A stretch of DNA of 64,000 bases from Bispira polyomma (lineage: Eukaryota), in NCBI GenBank assembly GCA_965649765.1, contig OZ287757.1, forward strand, positions 372,001 through 436,000, in the 5' to 3' direction. Both the position numbers and the translations under genes were made by a program. Every line of letters starts with the position of its first letter. The stretch's first letter is position 1. Shown one piece after another: positions 11,781-22,190 of the stretch. The notes beneath the pieces were generated by a model. It had not been told where the DNA came from and searched no databases. It worked only from the letters and a program-made list of their open reading frames with translations.

Positions 11781-14570
11781 TCACAAGTTATGTAATATAG
11801 GACCCCACTTTTCATGATAAAGTTTTAAACATTTTCCATTTCTCTCTAATAAAATTTTTTCCAATTTTGCATGATGACTTATAATTCTTATAGCATTTTC
11901 TACTTGAAGAGAACTTTCTAAACATTTTATTTTATATACATATTTTTTTACTATATTTATAACATGGTTCACAAGCAGTGTAAATTTAGTAGATATATAT
12001 CCCAGTAAAATTGTTTGGCTGTTTAGAATTTCTTCACTTATTATATTTTAAAAAGTTTTGACTACAGCACAAAACCAGAAAAAGTGTTCTATTGTTGTGT
12101 TTACTTTACAGAAATAACATCTGTCCATGTTAGTTAGTCTACAGCGATACAAGTATTTGTTTGTGGGAGTAACACATAAAAGTAATTTATATTGAAAAGC
12201 TCTCATTTTGCTTTCTATCGTGCATTTAAAGTTATTTAAATGATACCAGTTCCACTCTTCATCAGTAATTGGTTTATCAAAGATAGAGTTCCATTTTTAA
12301 AAATGATTGCGTTCAAAATTCACTTTTGTCAATAGGAACTGATAACAGTCTTTACAACATGTTTTCATGTTTAACAAAACTTTAAGTGGTTTCTGAAGCG
12401 AGATTTTTTCAATAAATGTTGTTTTAAATTGTTTCCAGTCTCTGGGAACACTATGCATCAGGCTATAGAAATCCACAAAATTAAGGGTAAAGTTGTAGTA
12501 ATTACAGAAACCTTCAAACCCAAAGAGGTTTCCATGAAGGTCAAAGAGATCGTTAATATATATTATACCTGCTTCCTCATATAACTTTCATTTTATTATG
12601 ATATTCTTGTTTTTCATAAAAAAGTACCGAAAAGGGGGTATGTCCTTGGATTAATTTCAACTATAAAAAACTGTTTGAAGTCTATCCAAGCACAGACAAC
12701 ATCTTTCCAGAATGGATTTTTCAAGGTTTTCTTTAAATGGTCTAGAGATTTTAAGTCTAATTCCCATATACATTTTTTATTGAGTTCAAATGACAAATGT
12801 CATAATTTAGACTTTCTAACTCAGCAAGTTCAACACTAAAACATATACCAAGAACAACAAATTTCTAAACCCACTTCAATCCTAAGTTTTGACAGATACA
12901 TTCTTTCATATTCTTTCCCCTCCCTAGCCATACTTCTTGGGTTTTCTCTAGATTTATACAGAGACCAGAACACAATGAAAAATCATTTAAGATGTTTATG
13001 CTTTCAATTAAAGATTCTTCAGAACCATCTAACAATAGAAAAGTATCGTCTGCAAACTGAGTTATTTTGATAGCACCAATCTTCATTGGAATACCATTTA
13101 TTTTTGAATTCTGCTTAATTGCCATCGCAAGAGACTCTATTGTGAGTAAAAAGACATAAGAACTCAGAGGATCACCTTGTCTACACGACCTGTGCAGTTT
13201 AAAAAAATTGGAAAAATGTCCATTATTTATAACACAACTACAGGAGTTTTTATAAATGACCTTAAACCACCTTATAAAATCATTGCCAAAATTATATTTG
13301 ATCCAGGCTTCATTAATATAGTTTCACTCAACAGAATGTAAGGCCTTTTCAAAGTCAATTTGAAGCAGCATACCAAGTTTATTGTTTTCCTCTAGATAGT
13401 GCATTGTGTCAAACAAGGTTCTTATATTTTCCCCTATGTATCTATTTTTTAAGAAACCTTTTTGCTCAGTATTGATACTATTTGGTAAAACTTGCTTCAA
13501 TCTGAAAGCTAAGACTCCTGAAAGTAGTTTGTAATCTACATTCAGTAGTGAGATAGGTCTCCAGTTTTTAACAAACTCTCTAGGTTTGTTGCCTTTAGGC
13601 AATAATGTAATAATACTTTGTTTCTGGGTTATTGAAAGTTCACCCATTTCAAAGCCTTCGTTCAAGCTGTTCAAAACATGTCGGTTCAAGCCATTCCAGA
13701 AAAATTTATAAAATTCTGCTGGGAACCCATCTGTGCCAGGTGATTTGCCATTTTGCATGTGTTTTAGGACCAAGTAAAGTTCAGACAAAGATATTTTTCC
13801 TTCACATTTACTTTTGTCATCGTCTGAGATTTGCCTAATGAATTCTTTCTTCAGGAAAATTTTTTGATACTGATTGGATTCCTGCGTATATTTTGATTGA
13901 TATAGTTTGCTATAATATGTCATCAACTCCTTCAGAATTGACTTTTGATCTGTGAGTACGTTTTGGCCATTGTTTAACCTACCAATTAACTTATTCACAT
14001 AATTTCGCTTTTCCAAATTACAAAAATAACTTGATGGTTTTTCCATTGATTCCTATATTTTGGCTTTTGATCTAATCAGAGCACCGCTTAATTTGTCTTG
14101 TCTTATTAATTTTAACTCCTGTATCTGCATTTCTAAAATATTTCTCACTTTTAACCTTATTTCATCAGAAATATCGACCTTGGTCAATTGTTTCTCTAAA
14201 TCCTCAATCATTTTCACTAAAGACATTTGTTTTTCAGACATTTCTTTTTGTACAACATCTTTAATTACTTTCTTTACTATAGCTACATTTATTTCATCTC
14301 TCAAAAGTGAGGTGTTAAATTTCCAGAAGCCCCTGCCTCTTGATATTTCATGAAATTCAATATCTATTCCAATAAAAGAGTGATCACTTCTATATCCTTA
14401 TGAAATATATTGCTTAACTACTTTTGCATGAATGTCAGGTGTCATGAAAAAGAAATCTAGTCTAGACAATTTGACTGGCCTGCTACCATTACGCCAGGTG
14501 TACTTTCTGTCATTTGGGTGTAAACTTCTCCATGTGTCAATTAGGTCTAAAACTTCCATAACAATCTTGT
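11781..14570 (-). pseudogene. L1/Tx1 ORF2 (endonuclease C-terminus, RT, C-terminal zinc-binding region)
   Basis: Motifs YTWRNG..SRLDFF..SDH, GKSPGTDGFPAEFYKFFW, NWRPISLLNVDYK, QFADD. Stops, frameshifts and internal deletions. Confidence 0.92.
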
Positions 14571-14774
14571 AATGTGTATCTCTTTCCCCTGTAAATTAGC
14601 TTGTCCCTTTGGAGAAACACGTTTGTGTCCTTTTCTTTGGCTATTTTCAAAACTTGCCTCAAGTGGTATCTTTTAGATTTAGTTACCTCTGGAAAGTCTA
14701 AACTTATACCCAAACATGTTATTGTTCCACTCCTATTTCTTGTAACCCTTGAACCTGCTGTATTTTCCCACAAC

Positions 14775-15653
14775 AGTAGTAGACCGGTATCGACGGTAGA
14801 CACCCCGGTTGGCTACGATAGACCCCGTGCTTTGCTTAATAGACCCCCCTATCTGCTATGGTACACCCCGCGCTTTGCTCAGACAGAAGTTAAGAAGTCA
14901 AAAGCTGCAGTCAATTATTTATGGTAAACCCAACGCTCTGCTCGGTAGACACCCCGGTTGGCTACGATAAACCCCTCTTTCTAGAATTATGCTAAATGTT
15001 TACACATCTGCTTACCTAAGTCAAGAAGTCACAGTAAACATTTTAAATTTTAAAAAGAAGTAATATTGATCTCCAGTTCATCTACTTTGTAGTGTAGAAG
15101 TCGGGAAGTCACACTGAAAAAGGTAACTCTGCTCAGCTGCTTACCTAAGTCAAGAAGTCAAGAATTATGCTAAACGTTTACACATCTGCTTACCTAAGTC
15201 AAGAAGTCACTGTGAACGCTTTAAATCTTGTTTTATTAAACCACACACTTTGTTCAGTAAGTGGTAAACCCAAACCTCTACTCGATACCTCTGGATTTTT
15301 TTTTAAAGTTGAAAAGTCAAGAGTCATTGAAGGGTTTACTGTATGCTTACCCAAGAAGTCAAGAAGTTAGTGTAAACATTTTAAACCATTTAAAGGTTTT
15401 TGCCTCCCACAAGAAATTACAGTAAACAAAGTGTAAGACGTCAACAAGTCACAGAAGAAGGATTTGGTGTGAATTTTTATCTTCTAACATAAGTTTGGAA
15501 ATCAAGAAGTCACAGTGAAAACTGGGTAGAAGTCGAGATTTCAGTTTTACGGAATCAATAAGAGTCAATATCTTAAAGTTAAATGAACCTAAACCTTGTA
15601 GCCAGACCTCCGCTAACATCAAATTCTACAAATTCACCTCAGATTAAGCTCAA
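14775..15653 (+). repeat. Left terminal inverted repeat
   Basis: Reverse complement of 20539-21434; about 8 substitutions in the first ~230 bp. Confidence 0.95.
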
Positions 15654-15905
15654 ATTCTATAGATTTACCTTAGATTAAGCTCTAACCCCAGATCAAGGTT
15701 TACTTCACATTGAACATAGACCTCTCTCTAAATGTCAAAATTCTATAATTCCAACAATACAAATCTGTTTATGAAGGTATCTTTAGGTTAAATCATGTAA
15801 CATTGAGTTTGTAAAGGGTAAAGTACTTTCAAGGGGTTTCTACTGTAACATACTAACTTATGGGTGAATAAATGGGGTCTATTCAGTTCTATTGAAAATA
15901 TTTAT

Positions 15906-15970
15906 TATAAAAGGTTGTAGTATTTCTCATGTCTTCAGTGTTGCTAACATCTGTACACAATTGTGTTGAA
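15906..15970 (+). promoter_or_regulatory. Pol II core promoter and non-coding first exon of the element's plus-strand gene
   Basis: TATAAAAG at 15906-15913, initiator TCAGT at 15935-15939 (~31 nt downstream), donor GTAATT at 15971, acceptor CAG ending 16020. Confidence 0.6.
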
Positions 15971-16024
15971 GTAATTAAAACAACCAAGGAGTGATATTGT
16001 GTGTTTATTAATTAATACAGGACT

Positions 16025-17567
16025 ATGGCTTCAATGTAAGTATTCTAATATTTTTCTAGTTTGGCATTATGATTGAATGATTTAACTAATATTGAGATAA
16101 TTTATTTATAAATTATCAACAATTCTGTGTTATTGTTAATCTATATGCAGTTAGAGGATAAGAGTTTAAATGTAAGTATTCTAGGATTCATCTATTTTTG
16201 AACGATTAACATAAGGAGTGAGTATAGATACAATGTGAATTAATTCATGATTTACTATTCTAATTTAGGGTGTTAATATTTTAGGAAAAGAAAAAATAAT
16301 GATGACGGGAAAGATAACTCTAACAATAGGAAAGGTGGAAAAAAACCAAAAAGGTAATAGTTTCTTGTCTTGTTTTTGAGGGGTGGTTGAGATATTATTG
16401 TAACGTTTTCACATATATATTGGTGAATATTTCAGTGATATACATAAATATACATTACTACAACCAAACAAAGGTGTATTATATATAATATATGAACACC
16501 ATATATACAACATATACTATATGTGGACATAGGATATCTATAATGTTCACAAACATTAGACATTACAAAATAGTTGGGATTTTATATATAATATCAATCA
16601 GTTGGTAAATTATAATGTAAATAGCTAACATAAGAAAATGTTAATTTTGACAGCTCCCTCTTTGATGATGATTATTCTGAGGAGGAAGAGGAGGACTCTG
16701 ACTTAGATTTGACGTTAGTAGAGTCGTTTACGGCTCTAAAGACTCCTTCTAAAAAGGGAAAAATGACTAAACCAAAAGGAAGAGGGAAGACACCTGCGGT
16801 TCATCTATTAGAGAGGATGGCAGAAGCTATCGAACCACCAACCAGACTGACCACTGGCGCCTGCAATATACAAGAGGAACCACAACCCTGTCAATCTACG
16901 ACCGTGTCAAGTACTACACCAACAAGGTAAGGATATATGTAGTATTAATTCATCCAACTAGCACAGAGTGGCTATGTATATTTTCTATATAATTAATACA
17001 TATATACTGTTGGTCTATATAAATAGCAATACAATATATATAATCTAGTAATATATGTATATTTCTATATAATTAATACATATATACTGTTGGTCTGTAT
17101 AACTTATAATACAATATATAATATATGTTTATATACAATCTAGTAATGATTAAAAGATATTACAAAAAAATATTCAATTTGTGTTTACCACTTTCGTGGA
17201 AAGGATTAACGATGACCTTAGTCTACAAAGAGATTATGATGAAGGAGAGACAACTCTTCTAGTGCGTTACAGGACAGATGCTATCCGATTGTACCAGGAA
17301 CATCTACAAATTCTCTTAAATAACATATCACAGTTAACTGCAGCGGTTCAGAGAGCTCGTGATGACAGACGAGTGTCAATGATGCTGGAATTGGGTGATG
17401 GTATCCGAGCAGCTGTCACAACCAACTTTCCCTATGTTTCTGTGCGCCGTTTCCACAAAAATTACAAGGGTCAGGACATTCCTGTCCAACATAAAGGATT
17501 CCTTTTTCTCTTTGAAGATATTGAACTCTTTGCTCAAAGCCTCAGAGCCTTCTTGAATAGGTTTTAA
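16025..17567 (+). CDS. Spliced 238-aa protein with basic NLS-like N-terminus, acidic tract and PC4-like (ssDNA-binding fold) C-terminus; exons 16025-16035, 16285-16353, 16654-16926, 17204-17567
   Basis: All three introns are GT-AG phase 2 and join in frame: MASMKRKNNDDG...SLFDDDYSEEEEEDSD...YVSVRRFHKNYKGQDIPVQHKGF. The PC4 call is by motif only. Confidence 0.7.
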
Positions 17568-17888
17568 ACCTAATGGATGTTGTGTTAAAGACAGTTTAAT
17601 AGGATTTATTGGGGATATTAATTTTGGTATAGATACTAACTGTGAACCATCGTTGGATTGATGTGGTGATACTGAAGTATTAGTGGTATCACTTGTTACA
17701 TTAACAGACTCATTCAACGGAGTGTCACCCTTCTTGTTAGAAGGAAGTAACTGAGTAGTAGTTTCTTGTTTAGGTTTTATTAGTGGTATGTCCTTATCAT
17801 CAATATTGGTTTGACTTGATTGAAGGTCTGTTCCTTTCCCCAGCAACCTTTGATACTTTTCAAATGGTACTAAAACTAATTTCTTCAT
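17376..17888 (-). CDS. Polinton-type hypothetical protein (MKKLVLVPFEKYQRL N-terminus), probably truncated or chimeric past ~17570
   Basis: Its ATG overlaps the previous stop (ATGA). The N-terminal motif resembles ORFs I recall downstream of Polinton ATPases. Its 3' end runs antisense over the plus-strand gene. Confidence 0.55.
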   Translation of the reverse strand: MKKLVLVPFEKYQRLLGKGTDLQSSQTNIDDKDIPLIKPKQETTTQLLPSNKKGDTPLNESVNVTSDTTNTSVSPHQSNDGSQLVSIPKLISPINPIKLSLTQHPLGLKPIQEGSEALSKEFNIFKEKKESFMLDRNVLTLVIFVETAHRNIGKVGCDSCSDTITQFQHH

Positions 17889-18202
17889 TTTAATAAACTT
17901 AAAAGTTGTGTCTTGAAAGATTGTAAAAGTCTCAAAAGACTTAGTTTACGAGTTGTAATCAATTTTTTTTTCCTATTATTGGAGGTGTTTTTACTGGATA
18001 GTTTCCTTAAAATAGATTTCTTTCTTTTAACAATTCCGTTTTGTTTTTTTGTCAAAGATATATTTAATAAGTTTTCAGCAATTTCACTTATGAGATTGAC
18101 TTGATCAAGAGAAATAGTGTCTAGTAAAGCTTTTGCTTGAGGGTGAGACCCATTTAAGATTAACACAAGGTACTCCTGATGTTTCTTTACATTAGAAACC
18201 AT
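17885..18202 (-). CDS. Small basic Polinton-type protein, 105 aa (candidate DNA-binding core protein)
   Basis: Intact ORF directly after the ATPase, Lys/Arg-rich C-terminal half. The pattern LISEIAENLL..I.L...Q...K..LRKL...TS...KK resembles the small ORF beside Polinton ATPases (recollection, not searched). Confidence 0.65.
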   Translation of the reverse strand: MVSNVKKHQEYLVLILNGSHPQAKALLDTISLDQVNLISEIAENLLNISLTKKQNGIVKRKKSILRKLSSKNTSNNRKKKLITTRKLSLLRLLQSFKTQLLSLLK

Positions 18203-18252
18203 CCTTCTACATTATAGTTTGGCTTGTAACTAATGGTGAGAATTATTTTCAT

Positions 18253-18884
18253 CTATTGATATACTATAGTTGGAAGCTCATCTGGAAATATATTTGTTTT
18301 TAACCTATAAGCCTCATCAGCTTTGGGAGATAGGTCAACAACTAGATATCCATAAGGATTATTCAAAGCATCAATGTAAGCATCTTTTAATATCTTTTTC
18401 ATCCCTATTTGTTGACCTAATAAAGCAACCTGTTGAATATTTCTTGGATTTTTCAGCAAAATTGTGTAAGCGGTATTAAGATTGAGAGTTCTAGCACATT
18501 TACCCTGATAAAACAAGTTTTGATTGATATATACAACAGAAATATTATTGTGATGACTTAACTGAGTGAAAAGTCTCTCAGCTTCAGAGCTTTTGCTACA
18601 GCATGTTGAAGGTCATCTAAACATATGATATGATGGTTTGAATCACTAATATCTTTTATTTGAGCTTTGGTTGGCATTCCTTCTATAAATTCTATAGATT
18701 AAGTTTTTTCAAACTGATCAAAAAGAGATTGCCAAACAGAGTAACAATATAATATTCTGCTAGGTGGATGTACAAACATTACATCTTTCTGCTGTAATAA
18801 TTTATACAACCAAGATGTTTTACCACTACCAGTCATCCCTGAAATGATCCAAGTACATGGAGATTGAAATTTAACAATGTCCAT
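18253..18884 (-). pseudogene. A32/FtsK-like DNA packaging ATPase (Polinton/adintovirus type)
   Basis: Walker A SGMTGSGKT, Walker B IICLDD, then LFTQLSHH, QNLF, RTLNLN, KNPR. One in-frame TAA at 18699-18701 and a 1-nt deletion in the A-run near 18591-18594. Confidence 0.92.
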
Positions 18885-18901
18885 GGGTACATGTCAATCA
18901 A

Positions 18902-19058
18902 AAAAGTATACTAGTAACTAATATTTATTATACTCATATATATACTAGTTTACTGATAGGATTACACAGGTAAGTAAGAAAAGTATACTGGTAACTAATA
19001 TTTATTATACTCATATATATACTAGTTTACTGATAGGTTTACACAGGTAAGTAAGAAT
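18902..19058. repeat. ~77-bp tandem duplication upstream of the ATPase
   Basis: Two near-identical units; the copy at ~360-450 has only one unit. Confidence 0.85.
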
Positions 19059-19145
19059 AATAGAGTGCGAATAGAATAATCTAACACTATAAATCAGTAA
19101 AAACAAACCAAAACCAAGTGTATGATAATATATGTGTACAGTTTA

Positions 19146-19739
19146 TTAGGTATTGTCACTTTTTTCTTTTACTTCTTCTGATATTTTATTTAAATCATTG
19201 TCACTTGTGTCTACTTCCGCTGACTCGGTTATTTCTGGTAAGCTCTTAGTGTTGTCCACTTCTGAGGTCTCTTCTACTTCTTTGGGTAAACCATTTGGAC
19301 AGCACATAGGACATGTAAAATAATCCTCTTGATTAGAATGTAAGGAAACTACACAGGGTTGTTCTGCATCGATTTGACCAAAAATATCCAATAATCTAAG
19401 CCATTGGTCAAATTTCAGTGATATACCATCTTTCGTTGGTAAAGCAAGTCCACCAAACCTAACAAAATGTCTGATCTGCACACATTTGAATGGGGATTGT
19501 AGATAAACAAATACATTATCCTCCAGTGATATATAAAATTCAGTAACATAGTTCTTATGACAAATTTGTCTAAGTTGGCTGGATAATGTGTCCAAATATC
19601 CCTTTAACTTTGTATATTTCAATGAGGTCAGACACAATTTATTGTCATCAGACTTTAAAATAAGAGTAAAATCACACCCTCCACTACCTCGAAGTTCCAC
19701 ATATTTATGTTCTTCTACATCAATTACATAGGTAGACAT
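19146..19739 (-). CDS. PC4-like ssDNA-binding protein with H/C-x2-C metal motif and acidic tail, 197 aa
   Basis: VQIRHFVRFGGLALPTKDGISLKFDQWLRL matches the PC4/Sub1 signature IR.F.....P...GISL...QW..L. Also HSNQ..FTCPMCCP. The stop overlaps AATAAA. Confidence 0.8.
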   Translation of the reverse strand: MSTYVIDVEEHKYVELRGSGGCDFTLILKSDDNKLCLTSLKYTKLKGYLDTLSSQLRQICHKNYVTEFYISLEDNVFVYLQSPFKCVQIRHFVRFGGLALPTKDGISLKFDQWLRLLDIFGQIDAEQPCVVSLHSNQEDYFTCPMCCPNGLPKEVEETSEVDNTKSLPEITESAEVDTSDNDLNKISEEVKEKSDNT

Positions 19740-19747
19740 TTGGTTAC

Positions 19748-20173
19748 TCAAACTTTTTCTTGAGAAGGAAACAAATATTTCAAAAAAGCACAACTTCCAG
19801 CTGAATGACGTCTGTGCTCGTAGAATACATCCTCAAACGCATCCCAAGAGTATAACACTACATTACACCAAGCACACTTACAGTGATCACCTTTTCCAAC
19901 ATAATACAACCCAGCTTTTGCTAACTGTTCAGGTCTAATAGGATGACTTTTAGGCCAAAACCTAAATGTTTTGATTCTATTATCATAAAAATGATAATAT
20001 TCGGTTGGAGTCTCGTATGTAAAACAGAATCCAGGAGATTTCTTTGTACTTGAACTGTGAGAACGAAATCCGCTACAATCTTCTGTGTCAGCACTTTTGC
20101 CTGAAGAAGCACTGGAACAAAGAGAAAATCCACCGGTAAAACCCTGTTCTTTAACACTGTCAGATTGGTCCAT
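19748..20173 (-). CDS. Single-BIR inhibitor-of-apoptosis (IAP)-like protein, 141 aa, no RING
   Basis: RIKTFRFWP...LAKAGLYYVGKGDHCKCAWC...W...D...EHRRH...CAF is a complete BIR with CCHC zinc ligands. Intronless. Confidence 0.92.
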   Translation of the reverse strand: MDQSDSVKEQGFTGGFSLCSSASSGKSADTEDCSGFRSHSSSTKKSPGFCFTYETPTEYYHFYDNRIKTFRFWPKSHPIRPEQLAKAGLYYVGKGDHCKCAWCNVVLYSWDAFEDVFYEHRRHSAGSCAFLKYLFPSQEKV

Positions 20174-20538
20174 TATTACAATATTTGTTGACTAGATAAG
20201 TCAGGTTATACTTTTATGCTGTCAACATTTGATCCCCAAGGTCTATTTCAATACAAAATGTTAGGGTATTGTAACTCCTCAAGGCTACACACAATAATTT
20301 AAAACCTTGAGGTTATAGAATTATAAAGGATAATTTAATATTATTGTCTCCTTAACTTTGCTGAACATTTAGCAGGGTTTACCGTTTCCACTGTGACTTC
20401 CAGACTTCTACACTACAAATAAGTTAAAAAATTTAAAGCGTTTACCGTGACTTCTCAACTTCTTGACTTTTGAAGTGAGTTCTTGAGTATTCTGAGCAGA
20501 GTTACCGTTTTCGGTGTGACTTCCCGACTTCTACACTG

Positions 20539-21434
20539 TTGAGCTTAATCTGAGGTGAATTTGTAGAATTTGACGTTAGCGGAGGTCTGGCTACAAGGTT
20601 TAGGTTCATTTAACTTTAAGATATTGACTCTTATTGACTCCGTAAAACTGAAATCTCGACTTCTACCCAGTTTTCACTGTGACTTCTTGACTTCCAAACT
20701 TATGTTAGAAGATAAAAATTCACACCAAATCCTTCTTCTGTGACTTGTTGACGTCTTGCACTTTGTTTACTGTAATTTCTTGTGGGAGGCAAAAACCTTT
20801 AAATGGTTTAAAACGTTTACACTAACTTCTTGACTTCTTGGGTAAGCATACAGTAAACCCTTCAATGACTCTTGACTTTTCAACTTTTAAAAAAAAATCC
20901 AGAGGTATCGAGTAGAGGTTTGGGTTTACCACTTACTGAGCAAAGCGTGTGGTTTAATAAAACAAGATTTAAAGCGTTCACAGTGACTTCTTGACTTCTT
21001 GACTTAGGTAAGCAGATGTGTAAACGTTTAGCATAATTCTTGACTTCTTGACTTAGGTGAGCAGCTGAGCAGAGTTACCTTTTTCAGTGTGACTTCCCGA
21101 CTTCTACACTACAAAGTGAATGAACTCGAGATCAATATTACTTCTTTTTAAAATTTAAAATGTTTACTGTGACTTCTTGACTTCTTGACTTAGGTAAGCA
21201 GATGTGTAAACGTTTAGCATAATTCTAGAAAGAAGGGTTTATTGTAGCCGACCGGGGTGTCTACCGAGCAGAGCGTTGGGTTTACCATAAATAATTGACT
21301 GCAGCTTTTGACGTCTTAACTTCTGTCTGAGCAAAGCGCGGGGTGTACCATAGCAGATAGGGGGGTCTATTAAGCAAAGCGCGGGGTCTATCGTAGCCAA
21401 CCGGGGTGTCTACAGGCGATACCGGTCTACTACC
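20539..21434 (-). repeat. Right terminal inverted repeat
   Basis: Matches the left TIR, with two extra 9-bp gacttcttg-type units. Confidence 0.95.
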
Positions 21435-22190
21435 CACAACAGTTTTCACTGCTTTAATACTAACTCTGCATCAGGGTAAAAGTGAAATATCACCAGAATC
21501 GGTCGAAGCATAGTGATATGGTCTTGTTTTCTACCAATTCTGTGTGCTCTGACTAGTCTTATTCTTGACCGGGCATCTTCAATGTTTAATTTTTGTTCCA
21601 AAATTTGGTAAATAATGTTTGTTACATCTTCTTTCATTCCAGCTGTTTCTTTGACACCATAGAATACCAAGTTTTCTCTTCTAGAATATGATTCCAAATC
21701 TAATAACTTTGTTTCTAGATGATGTATTTTATTTTTCAGCAACTGTTCTGTACCGGTATGGCTTGCGGTTAGCTGTTTATACTCTATCGTTTCCACCTTA
21801 CCTTTCAATTCATCAATGTCTTTGTGTGATTATTCCAAAGAGGACTTTACATCACTAATCTTATTTTCAGCCTTTGCCAAATCGTTCTTAAGCATTGTGA
21901 TGTCTTTACTGTTTGCATCAACAACACACTTTATTTCTGTTACTTTCTGTGCCAACTTGTCCAGGGTATCATTCATCTTCTCTACTGGCTCCAGTTTTGT
22001 TAAAATAGTCTTGCATCACTTTGGTTTCCTACACTAACTGACTCAGCCATAGTCTCTTTAAGATCTTTGTTCCTTGTTTCAAAAAATCACAAATAGACCC
22101 TTTGCTCTTCTTTTGTAGAGGACTTAGTTTATGCGATTGTCTTTTACTGTTCGAACCACTTTTATTACATTTTATTCCTTTTTCCATAGT
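21435..22190 (-). pseudogene. L1/Tx1 ORF1, 5' part (3' part at ~14570-14774)
   Basis: Coiled coil followed by LESYSRRENLVFYGVKE...RAHRIGR..RPILVIF (RRM-type ORF1). Joins in frame to LLWENTAG...ISLDFP after removing the insertion. Confidence 0.85.

Follow-up and report, generated by a model that had tools for sequence, protein, structure and literature searches.

We analyzed a window of 64,000 nucleotides from the genome of Bispira polyomma (contig OZ287757.1, positions 372,001 to 436,000), in which an internally deleted Polinton/Maverick copy of 6658 bp (14776..21433) was delimited by its inverted repeats, its target site duplication (TSD), and a junction probe. Long terminal inverted repeats (TIRs) and a 6-bp target duplication are hallmarks of Polintons/Mavericks, and the window element has both. 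Repeat comparison placed the left TIR, which starts with AGTAGT, at 14776..15653 and the right TIR at 20539..21433, the two arms being 97–98% complementary, and the flanking sequence contains the TSD CACAAC on the plus strand at 14770..14775 (left) and 21434..21439 (right); a matching 6-bp TSD was also found in one sister copy. TIR length differs from copy to copy, and the subterminal segment at 20871–21201 is inverted beside a short, 115-bp end in some copies (L005, L006, L007, and L012). The element interrupts a host LINE, the ORF2 side of which, with the reverse transcriptase, was identified with Pfam at 12865..14769 on the minus strand; the minus-strand sequence at 21440..22015 has no Pfam match, and, judging from the sequence, it is probably the part of this LINE that contains ORF1. 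The empty LINE join occurs in contigs of X1 and X3, which may stem from other LINE copies. Three matching contigs of one study were considered as expression evidence and rejected, as the TIR and the LINE were covered alike. Elsewhere in the window, a different retroelement is represented by a reverse transcriptase ORF of 389 aa (60733–61902).

Reading inward from the right TIR, the minus strand of the element contains a stand-alone BIR gene (19748..20173, 141 aa) and, starting 8 bp past its stop codon, a PC4-like gene (19146..19739, 197 aa; PF02229 at 24 bits, just below the cut-off of 25). These are followed by a probable packaging-type ATPase (18253..18893), which is broken into two frames here and which in sister copies is a P-loop ORF at the expected position with a weak Pox_A32 match (E = 0.006), and by a conserved 105-aa ORF with no family assigned (17885..18202), which lies between the ATPase and the integrase in sister copies. 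The deletion junction, with a 5-bp overlap, was located at 17610..17614 by probing the sister copies. Beyond it, the plus strand has a 137-aa open frame from the left part of the element (17154..17567), to which Pfam, Atlas, and BLASTP assigned no family; an impression by eye that this frame was PC4-like was dropped, as these comparisons gave it no support. A 321-bp probe across the junction matched as a whole at the window locus alone, the other 39 of its 40 matches being halves, and in 17 sister copies these halves are separated by ~10–25 kb. The internal deletion thus took the integrase, capsid, protease, and polymerase out of the window copy, which, without its own polymerase, integrase, and capsid, is not an autonomous Polinton. 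Since the core genes are retained in the sisters, the window copy arose by a private deletion within a Polinton family that numbers ~20 copies, and it is non-autonomous.

The identity of this family was established from the sister copies, which are 92–98% identical to the window element and encode an integrase, a capsid, a probable protease, and a protein-primed polymerase (pPolB). As expected of Polintons/Mavericks, they combine pPolB (PF03175, DNA_pol_B_2, at 26.5 bits, above the cut-off) with an integrase containing rve and a chromodomain (rve E = 2.5e-6, below the cut-off). The capsid is of the double jelly-roll type according to a model of moderate confidence (pLDDT 58), which matches the capsids of Sputnik, mavirus, and PBCV-1 (best E = 4e-13), and a probable protease, placed as expected, has a weak match to a viral cysteine protease (E = 0.11). 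The sequence-only reading had regarded the BIR gene as cargo of a Polinton-like element. This is borne out by its position beside the core genes in the sister copies and by its presence in 19 of the 20 close copies having the right part; absence from other family members, which would have told against the proposal, was not seen, and the 20th copy lost the BIR through a deletion that also cuts the PC4 gene. In this family, a NADAR-like domain terminates the pPolB frame (L037 689–2548, L041 2494–3690, and L039 7806–9998; best score 35.7 bits against a cut-off of 35.1). Longer copies additionally have small ORFs whose products begin with a hydrophobic stretch (L038 6274–6831 and L046 6609–7079) and are possibly secreted or membrane proteins; one of these ORFs matches LRRNT weakly.

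The BIR gene is a single intronless frame from ATG to stop, and its product has one Pfam match, the BIR domain PF00653 at aa 66–132, which scores 65.8 bits against a cut-off of 22.9. No RING was found in the 141-aa protein, which is not a RING-type IAP, and scans of 16 family members likewise returned BIR matches only, with RING in none. The zinc ligands are C100, C103, H120, and C128; across the 16 aligned members three are invariant and H120 is conserved in at least 90%. With a domain above the Pfam cut-off and a CX2CX16HX6-10C zinc site, the protein belongs to the BIR/IAP family. Furthermore, from the start of the BIR gene to the right end of the element there is no other ATG-initiated ORF of at least 90 aa. 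The ORF, the Pfam scan, and the alignment therefore confirm the earlier description of an intact, intronless, RING-less BIR with all four zinc ligands, and the gene is indeed the first inside the right TIR. Under the published rule, in which E or Q precedes the His ligand and W or H stands three residues after it (PMC8917759), the domain is type II (E119, H120, and H123). It is preceded by an N-terminal leader of ~58 aa that is predicted to be disordered: in the AlphaFold model, pLDDT is 84–93 over aa 61–130 and < 50 across most of the leader. The closest PDB structure to the model is cIAP1 BIR3 (rmsd 1.6). A GF[S/A]L-type motif at aa 12–17 is retained in the otherwise variable leader, and a loose form of it occurs in 19 of 19 outside homologues.

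An older fragment of a related element, 78–80% identical, lies at 311..1654 on the minus strand of the window and comprises the ATPase start, a PC4-like gene, and a BIR pseudogene (1009..1414, minus strand); no core genes were found within 20 kb upstream of it. In its BIR-coding part, the pseudogene has lost 22 nt and 1 nt in two deletions and contains a stop. It had been proposed for dN/dS analysis, for which these lesions make it useless, and it was excluded from the selection tests (its ratio is 0.79).

We then examined how BIR genes are distributed in the genome. A search with the window protein gave 151 matches from the best 150 of 538 candidates, and a core gene adjoins 53 of the 54 inspected matches among these; the remaining one (L011) is broken up by an insertion. 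A second search with the Pfam BIR model scored the best 150 of 537 candidates. Seventy-three of these matches were shared with the first list (34 inspected, 39 left uninspected), and 33 of the 34 inspected have a core gene. The 77 non-shared matches comprised 40 with a core gene within 5 kb and 8 more with one further downstream (a core gene was found in all 9 stretches read in this way), 7 with ambiguous flanks, of which 5 have sequences that nearly duplicate Polinton BIRs, and 22 genes of host-like type, either multi-BIR or BIR-RING. Thus, among the best 150 of 537 candidates, 81 of the 111 inspected BIR matches lie in Polintons and 22 are host-like. Polintons therefore supply most of the best-scoring BIR domains in this genome; since matches rather than elements were counted and a six-frame search favors intronless domains, this share refers to the top-scoring domains, not to all IAP genes. 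Separately, six BIR matches are found no more than 250 kb from a contig start (C3:71608, C15:69437, C8:142700, C11:4572, C13:57503, and C9:244630) and are possibly subtelomeric; five of them belong to one subfamily by their scores. Three intronless BIR-RING frames (L114 4303–5400, L121 3763–5346, and L129 4018–5364) lack any Polinton gene at a distance of up to 5 kb and are candidates for true retrogenes.

Five Polinton layouts carry BIR genes: BIR-PC4-ATPase, as in the window element (layout A); a protease followed by two or three BIRs (layout B); a BIR facing the capsid (layout C); a BIR before pPolB (layout D); and BIR-PC4-RING upstream of the ATPase (layout E). Of the 19 group A domains, 16 pass the type II rule, and layout D and most layout B domains fail its strict form. 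In layout E, a separate RING gene lies a few kb from the RING-less BIR (L108 8340–9053, L125 7050–7760, and L119 8204–8665), and it is conceivable that the two would act in trans as a split IAP. The tight BIR-PC4-ATPase block was seen over many subfamilies, and the gene order is fixed across elements whose capsids are 42–81% identical.

In a quick tree of 76 columns, all 41 Polinton BIR domains tested formed one branch (SH-aLRT 97), which leaves out the 28 host-like domains of the genome and 98 domains from 30 of 150 multi-BIR proteins; these 150 were the top of a representative-protein search, all are multi-BIR, and they served purely as the outgroup. L017, L132, and L165 were not placed in the tree, as they gave no pattern match. 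In a careful tree of 60 rows, support for the branch is 91/91, and 7 single-BIR proteins of other assemblies fall within it. The outside single-BIR homologues form clusters of up to 114 members and lie on long contigs, and from the tree alone we infer that they are Polinton genes; a single-sequence word search for homologues returned nothing at 1e-8. The phylogenetic comparison that the sequence-only reading had suggested thus sets the Polinton BIRs apart from host IAPs as one clade. The proposed spread of BIR genes by Polintons is shown within this genome (81 of 111 matches). A hand-over to host genes is not, as no host-like IAP falls inside this clade in either tree. Both BIRs of a 268-aa viral IAP (L179) are outside the clade in the 60-row tree, and an origin from this herpes-like viral IAP was therefore not supported.

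BIR and capsid distances over 24 elements were correlated (Mantel test, Spearman 0.61, 0/2000 permutations), the window BIR being matched with the capsid of a sister; L112 and L110, with pieces < 180 aa, were left out of the capsid tree. Because kin share labels in this test, the correlation shows joint inheritance and is not proof of co-evolution. As a separate observation, L061 is close to L062 and L063 in BIR and PC4 (dS 0.24–0.38), with saturation (dS above 2) of the ATPase in both pairs and of the capsid in the pair with L063, a pattern indicative of recombination between subfamilies.

We also analyzed selection on the BIR gene. Over five between-subfamily pairs without a shared member, dN/dS was 0.19 (0.14–0.26) for the BIR domain and 0.50 (0.35–0.68) for the leader, and in the three pairs with dS of 0.46–0.66 and the lowest dN the domain value was 0.04–0.06. 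Young pairs with few changes were left out, as their ratios were unstable (0.08 to over 2), and the L065/L068 pair (0.39) was set aside because two different tandem BIR genes had been compared. Among 12 young copies, 12 synonymous and 34 other changes were counted (ratio 0.78, near neutral), with no change in the zinc ligands. From purifying selection between subfamilies and near neutrality among the young copies, it follows that selection worked on ancestral replicating lineages and not on inserted copies, including the window copy. Neutral evolution on all branches, which would have counted against the original proposal, was not seen. A chance pick-up of a host retrogene or gene fragment, carried neutrally ever since, would agree with the absence of introns and with the near neutrality of the young copies. 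It is refuted by the between-subfamily dN/dS, barring mis-assigned pairs, and it does not fit the fixed gene order, the single clade without the 28 host-like domains, or the relatives in other assemblies; we consider it very improbable. The BIR is almost certainly a selected accessory gene of Polintons.

A possible function is suggested by the leader. The pattern DxxD followed by S, A, or G is that of effector caspases, and codons 2–6 of the window gene (20156..20170, minus strand) encode DQSD followed by S, a predicted effector-caspase site according to sequence and conservation tests; a cut there would remove just five residues. Of 18 subfamily representatives, 9 have DxxD[S/A/G] in the leader, compared with 0.88 after shuffling (0/5000), and 14 have the looser [DE]xxD[SAGC], figures for a motif that was first spotted by eye and whose carriers share ancestry. 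The outside homologues were counted once the motif had been fixed, and 16 of 19 contain it (7 of 8 after clustering at 60%); in the first 60 aa of multi-BIR proteins it was found in 6 of 150. The site is missing from layout D and one layout E subfamily, and from the pseudogene at 1009–1414. In Drosophila, DIAP1 is activated by caspase cleavage after Asp20, DIAP2 traps drICE via a cleavage site upstream of a BIR, and both require their RING to block death in vivo (PMC3972657, PMC2373516, PMC3979898).

On this basis, we propose that the BIR groove would bind the N-terminal IAP-binding motifs (IBMs) of IAP antagonists or processed caspases and that, since a protein without a RING would not ubiquitinate its targets, it would act as a decoy. 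An active effector caspase may cut the leader at DxxD before S, A, or G, either as a DIAP1-like switch or as a DIAP2-like bait, and during activity of the element the host cell would be shielded from death driven by caspases. Given that DIAP1 and DIAP2 need their RING in vivo, a BIR on its own may be a weak inhibitor. We consider it fairly probable that this RING-less type II BIR protein, with its predicted caspase-sensitive leader, dampens host cell death. The BIR could instead serve the element in a non-apoptotic role, such as damping innate immune signaling or tethering the element to chromatin through histone H3 tails or further N-terminal peptides: cIAP1 BIR3 binds histone H3 with the same groove (title of PDB entry 7trl), the BIR gene adjoins a PC4-like gene, the integrase has a chromodomain, and IAPs are active in NF-kB signaling too. 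Such a role leaves the conserved caspase-type site unexplained. Survivin has a long helix, which the Polinton protein, ending 13 residues past the last zinc ligand, does not have, and survivin ranked below cIAP and XIAP BIR2/BIR3 among the matches; a non-apoptotic role is thus unlikely.

If the protein dampens cell death, it could instead do so in the germ line, where buffering of the DNA-damage response would aid copying and integration and a virion cycle would be unneeded. Every copy seen is inserted in a chromosome, and TSDs are present wherever both ends could be read; a viral contig scan found no BIR-bearing Polinton of this kind among 34 candidate stretches. Between divergent subfamilies, however, the capsid (dN/dS 0.04–0.17) and the ATPase are constrained like the BIR, which fits recurrent particle formation, and the exchange of modules between subfamilies (L061 vs. 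L062 and L063) also speaks against a germ-line-only existence, which we regard as quite unlikely. Regarding the virus-like cycle proposed in the sequence-only reading, the conserved capsid, protease, and ATPase of the sisters back it, whereas the BIR alone does not show it.

IAP cargo in Polintons/adintoviruses is already published: homologues of Bcl2 and IAP were observed in adintoviruses (Starrett et al. 2021, PMC8502044), and an IAP is listed in leafhopper adintoviruses (preprint 10.64898/2026.07.28.741253). In the supplement of the former, read as figure text, two IAP labels appear, one next to the Mytilus map label, and their assignment is unsure. Adintoviruses and animal Polintons share with the present family pPolB, the rve integrase, the double jelly-roll capsid, TIRs, and an accessory IAP homologue, and they have the packaging ATPase and protease that are probable here (PMC8502044), and the Alpha and Beta groups are defined by the PolB class and an N-terminal OTU-like domain (PMC8502044). 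In their available text, the two reports give the IAP one sentence or a label, and neither analyzes its clade, tests selection, types the domain, mentions a caspase site, or counts such genes genome-wide (PMC8502044, 10.64898/2026.07.28.741253). In the published literature searched, we found no paper with a clade, selection test, caspase site, or genome-wide share (the supplementary figures of PMC8502044 may hold more), and none pairing Polintons with a BIR domain. The present results define an accessory protein family with a specific predicted mechanism, a caspase site together with an IBM groove, which bears on host-cell survival under virus-like elements.

DIAP1 and DIAP2 resemble the window protein in having a type II BIR with a caspase site N-terminal to it, predicted only in the latter; they are host multi-BIR RING E3 ligases, whereas the window protein has one BIR and no RING (PMC3972657, PMC2373516, PMC3979898). 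The IAPs of large DNA viruses (baculoviruses, iridovirus 193R, and mollusc herpesviruses) are similar in fold, are intronless, and are virus-encoded; the one viral IAP in our tree (268 aa, L179) differs in that both of its BIRs are outside the Polinton clade. Burro giant gypsy elements are likewise mobile elements with an apoptosis-related BIR domain, but they are LTR retrotransposons with the BIR inside a polyprotein (PMC6431247).

The closest parallel in gene form is provided by the single-BIR expansions of molluscs, which are also dispersed, intronless, one-BIR genes forming one clade (Song et al. 2021, PMC7831173; Witkop et al. 2022, PMC8917759; PMC13159474). Surveys of IAP expansion put these genes down to retroposition (PMC7831173, PMC8917759, PMC13159474), whereas in the present genome such genes sit inside Polintons; the available text of PMC7831173 and PMC13159474 never uses the words Polinton or Maverick. 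In the hard clam, 42 of 49 are in clade 1; these 42 intronless one-BIR genes are mostly silent, DNA transposons are enriched near IAP genes, and by analogy the 42 genes have the profile expected of Polinton cargo. Invertebrate IAP expansions are currently read as host stress adaptation, with the intronless members as retrogenes, and carriage by Polintons is a testable alternative to retroposition for such bursts; published IAP lists can be checked directly for an integrase, capsid, and pPolB within ~15 kb. We tentatively propose that a single ancient BIR capture may have given Polintons a caspase-switched, RING-less death inhibitor and that the "retrogene" bursts of molluscs and other invertebrates may be largely viral, a reading we hold to be a serious possibility rather than a probable one. 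If it is true, some of what counts as the "expanded host IAP repertoire" is the property of endogenous viruses.
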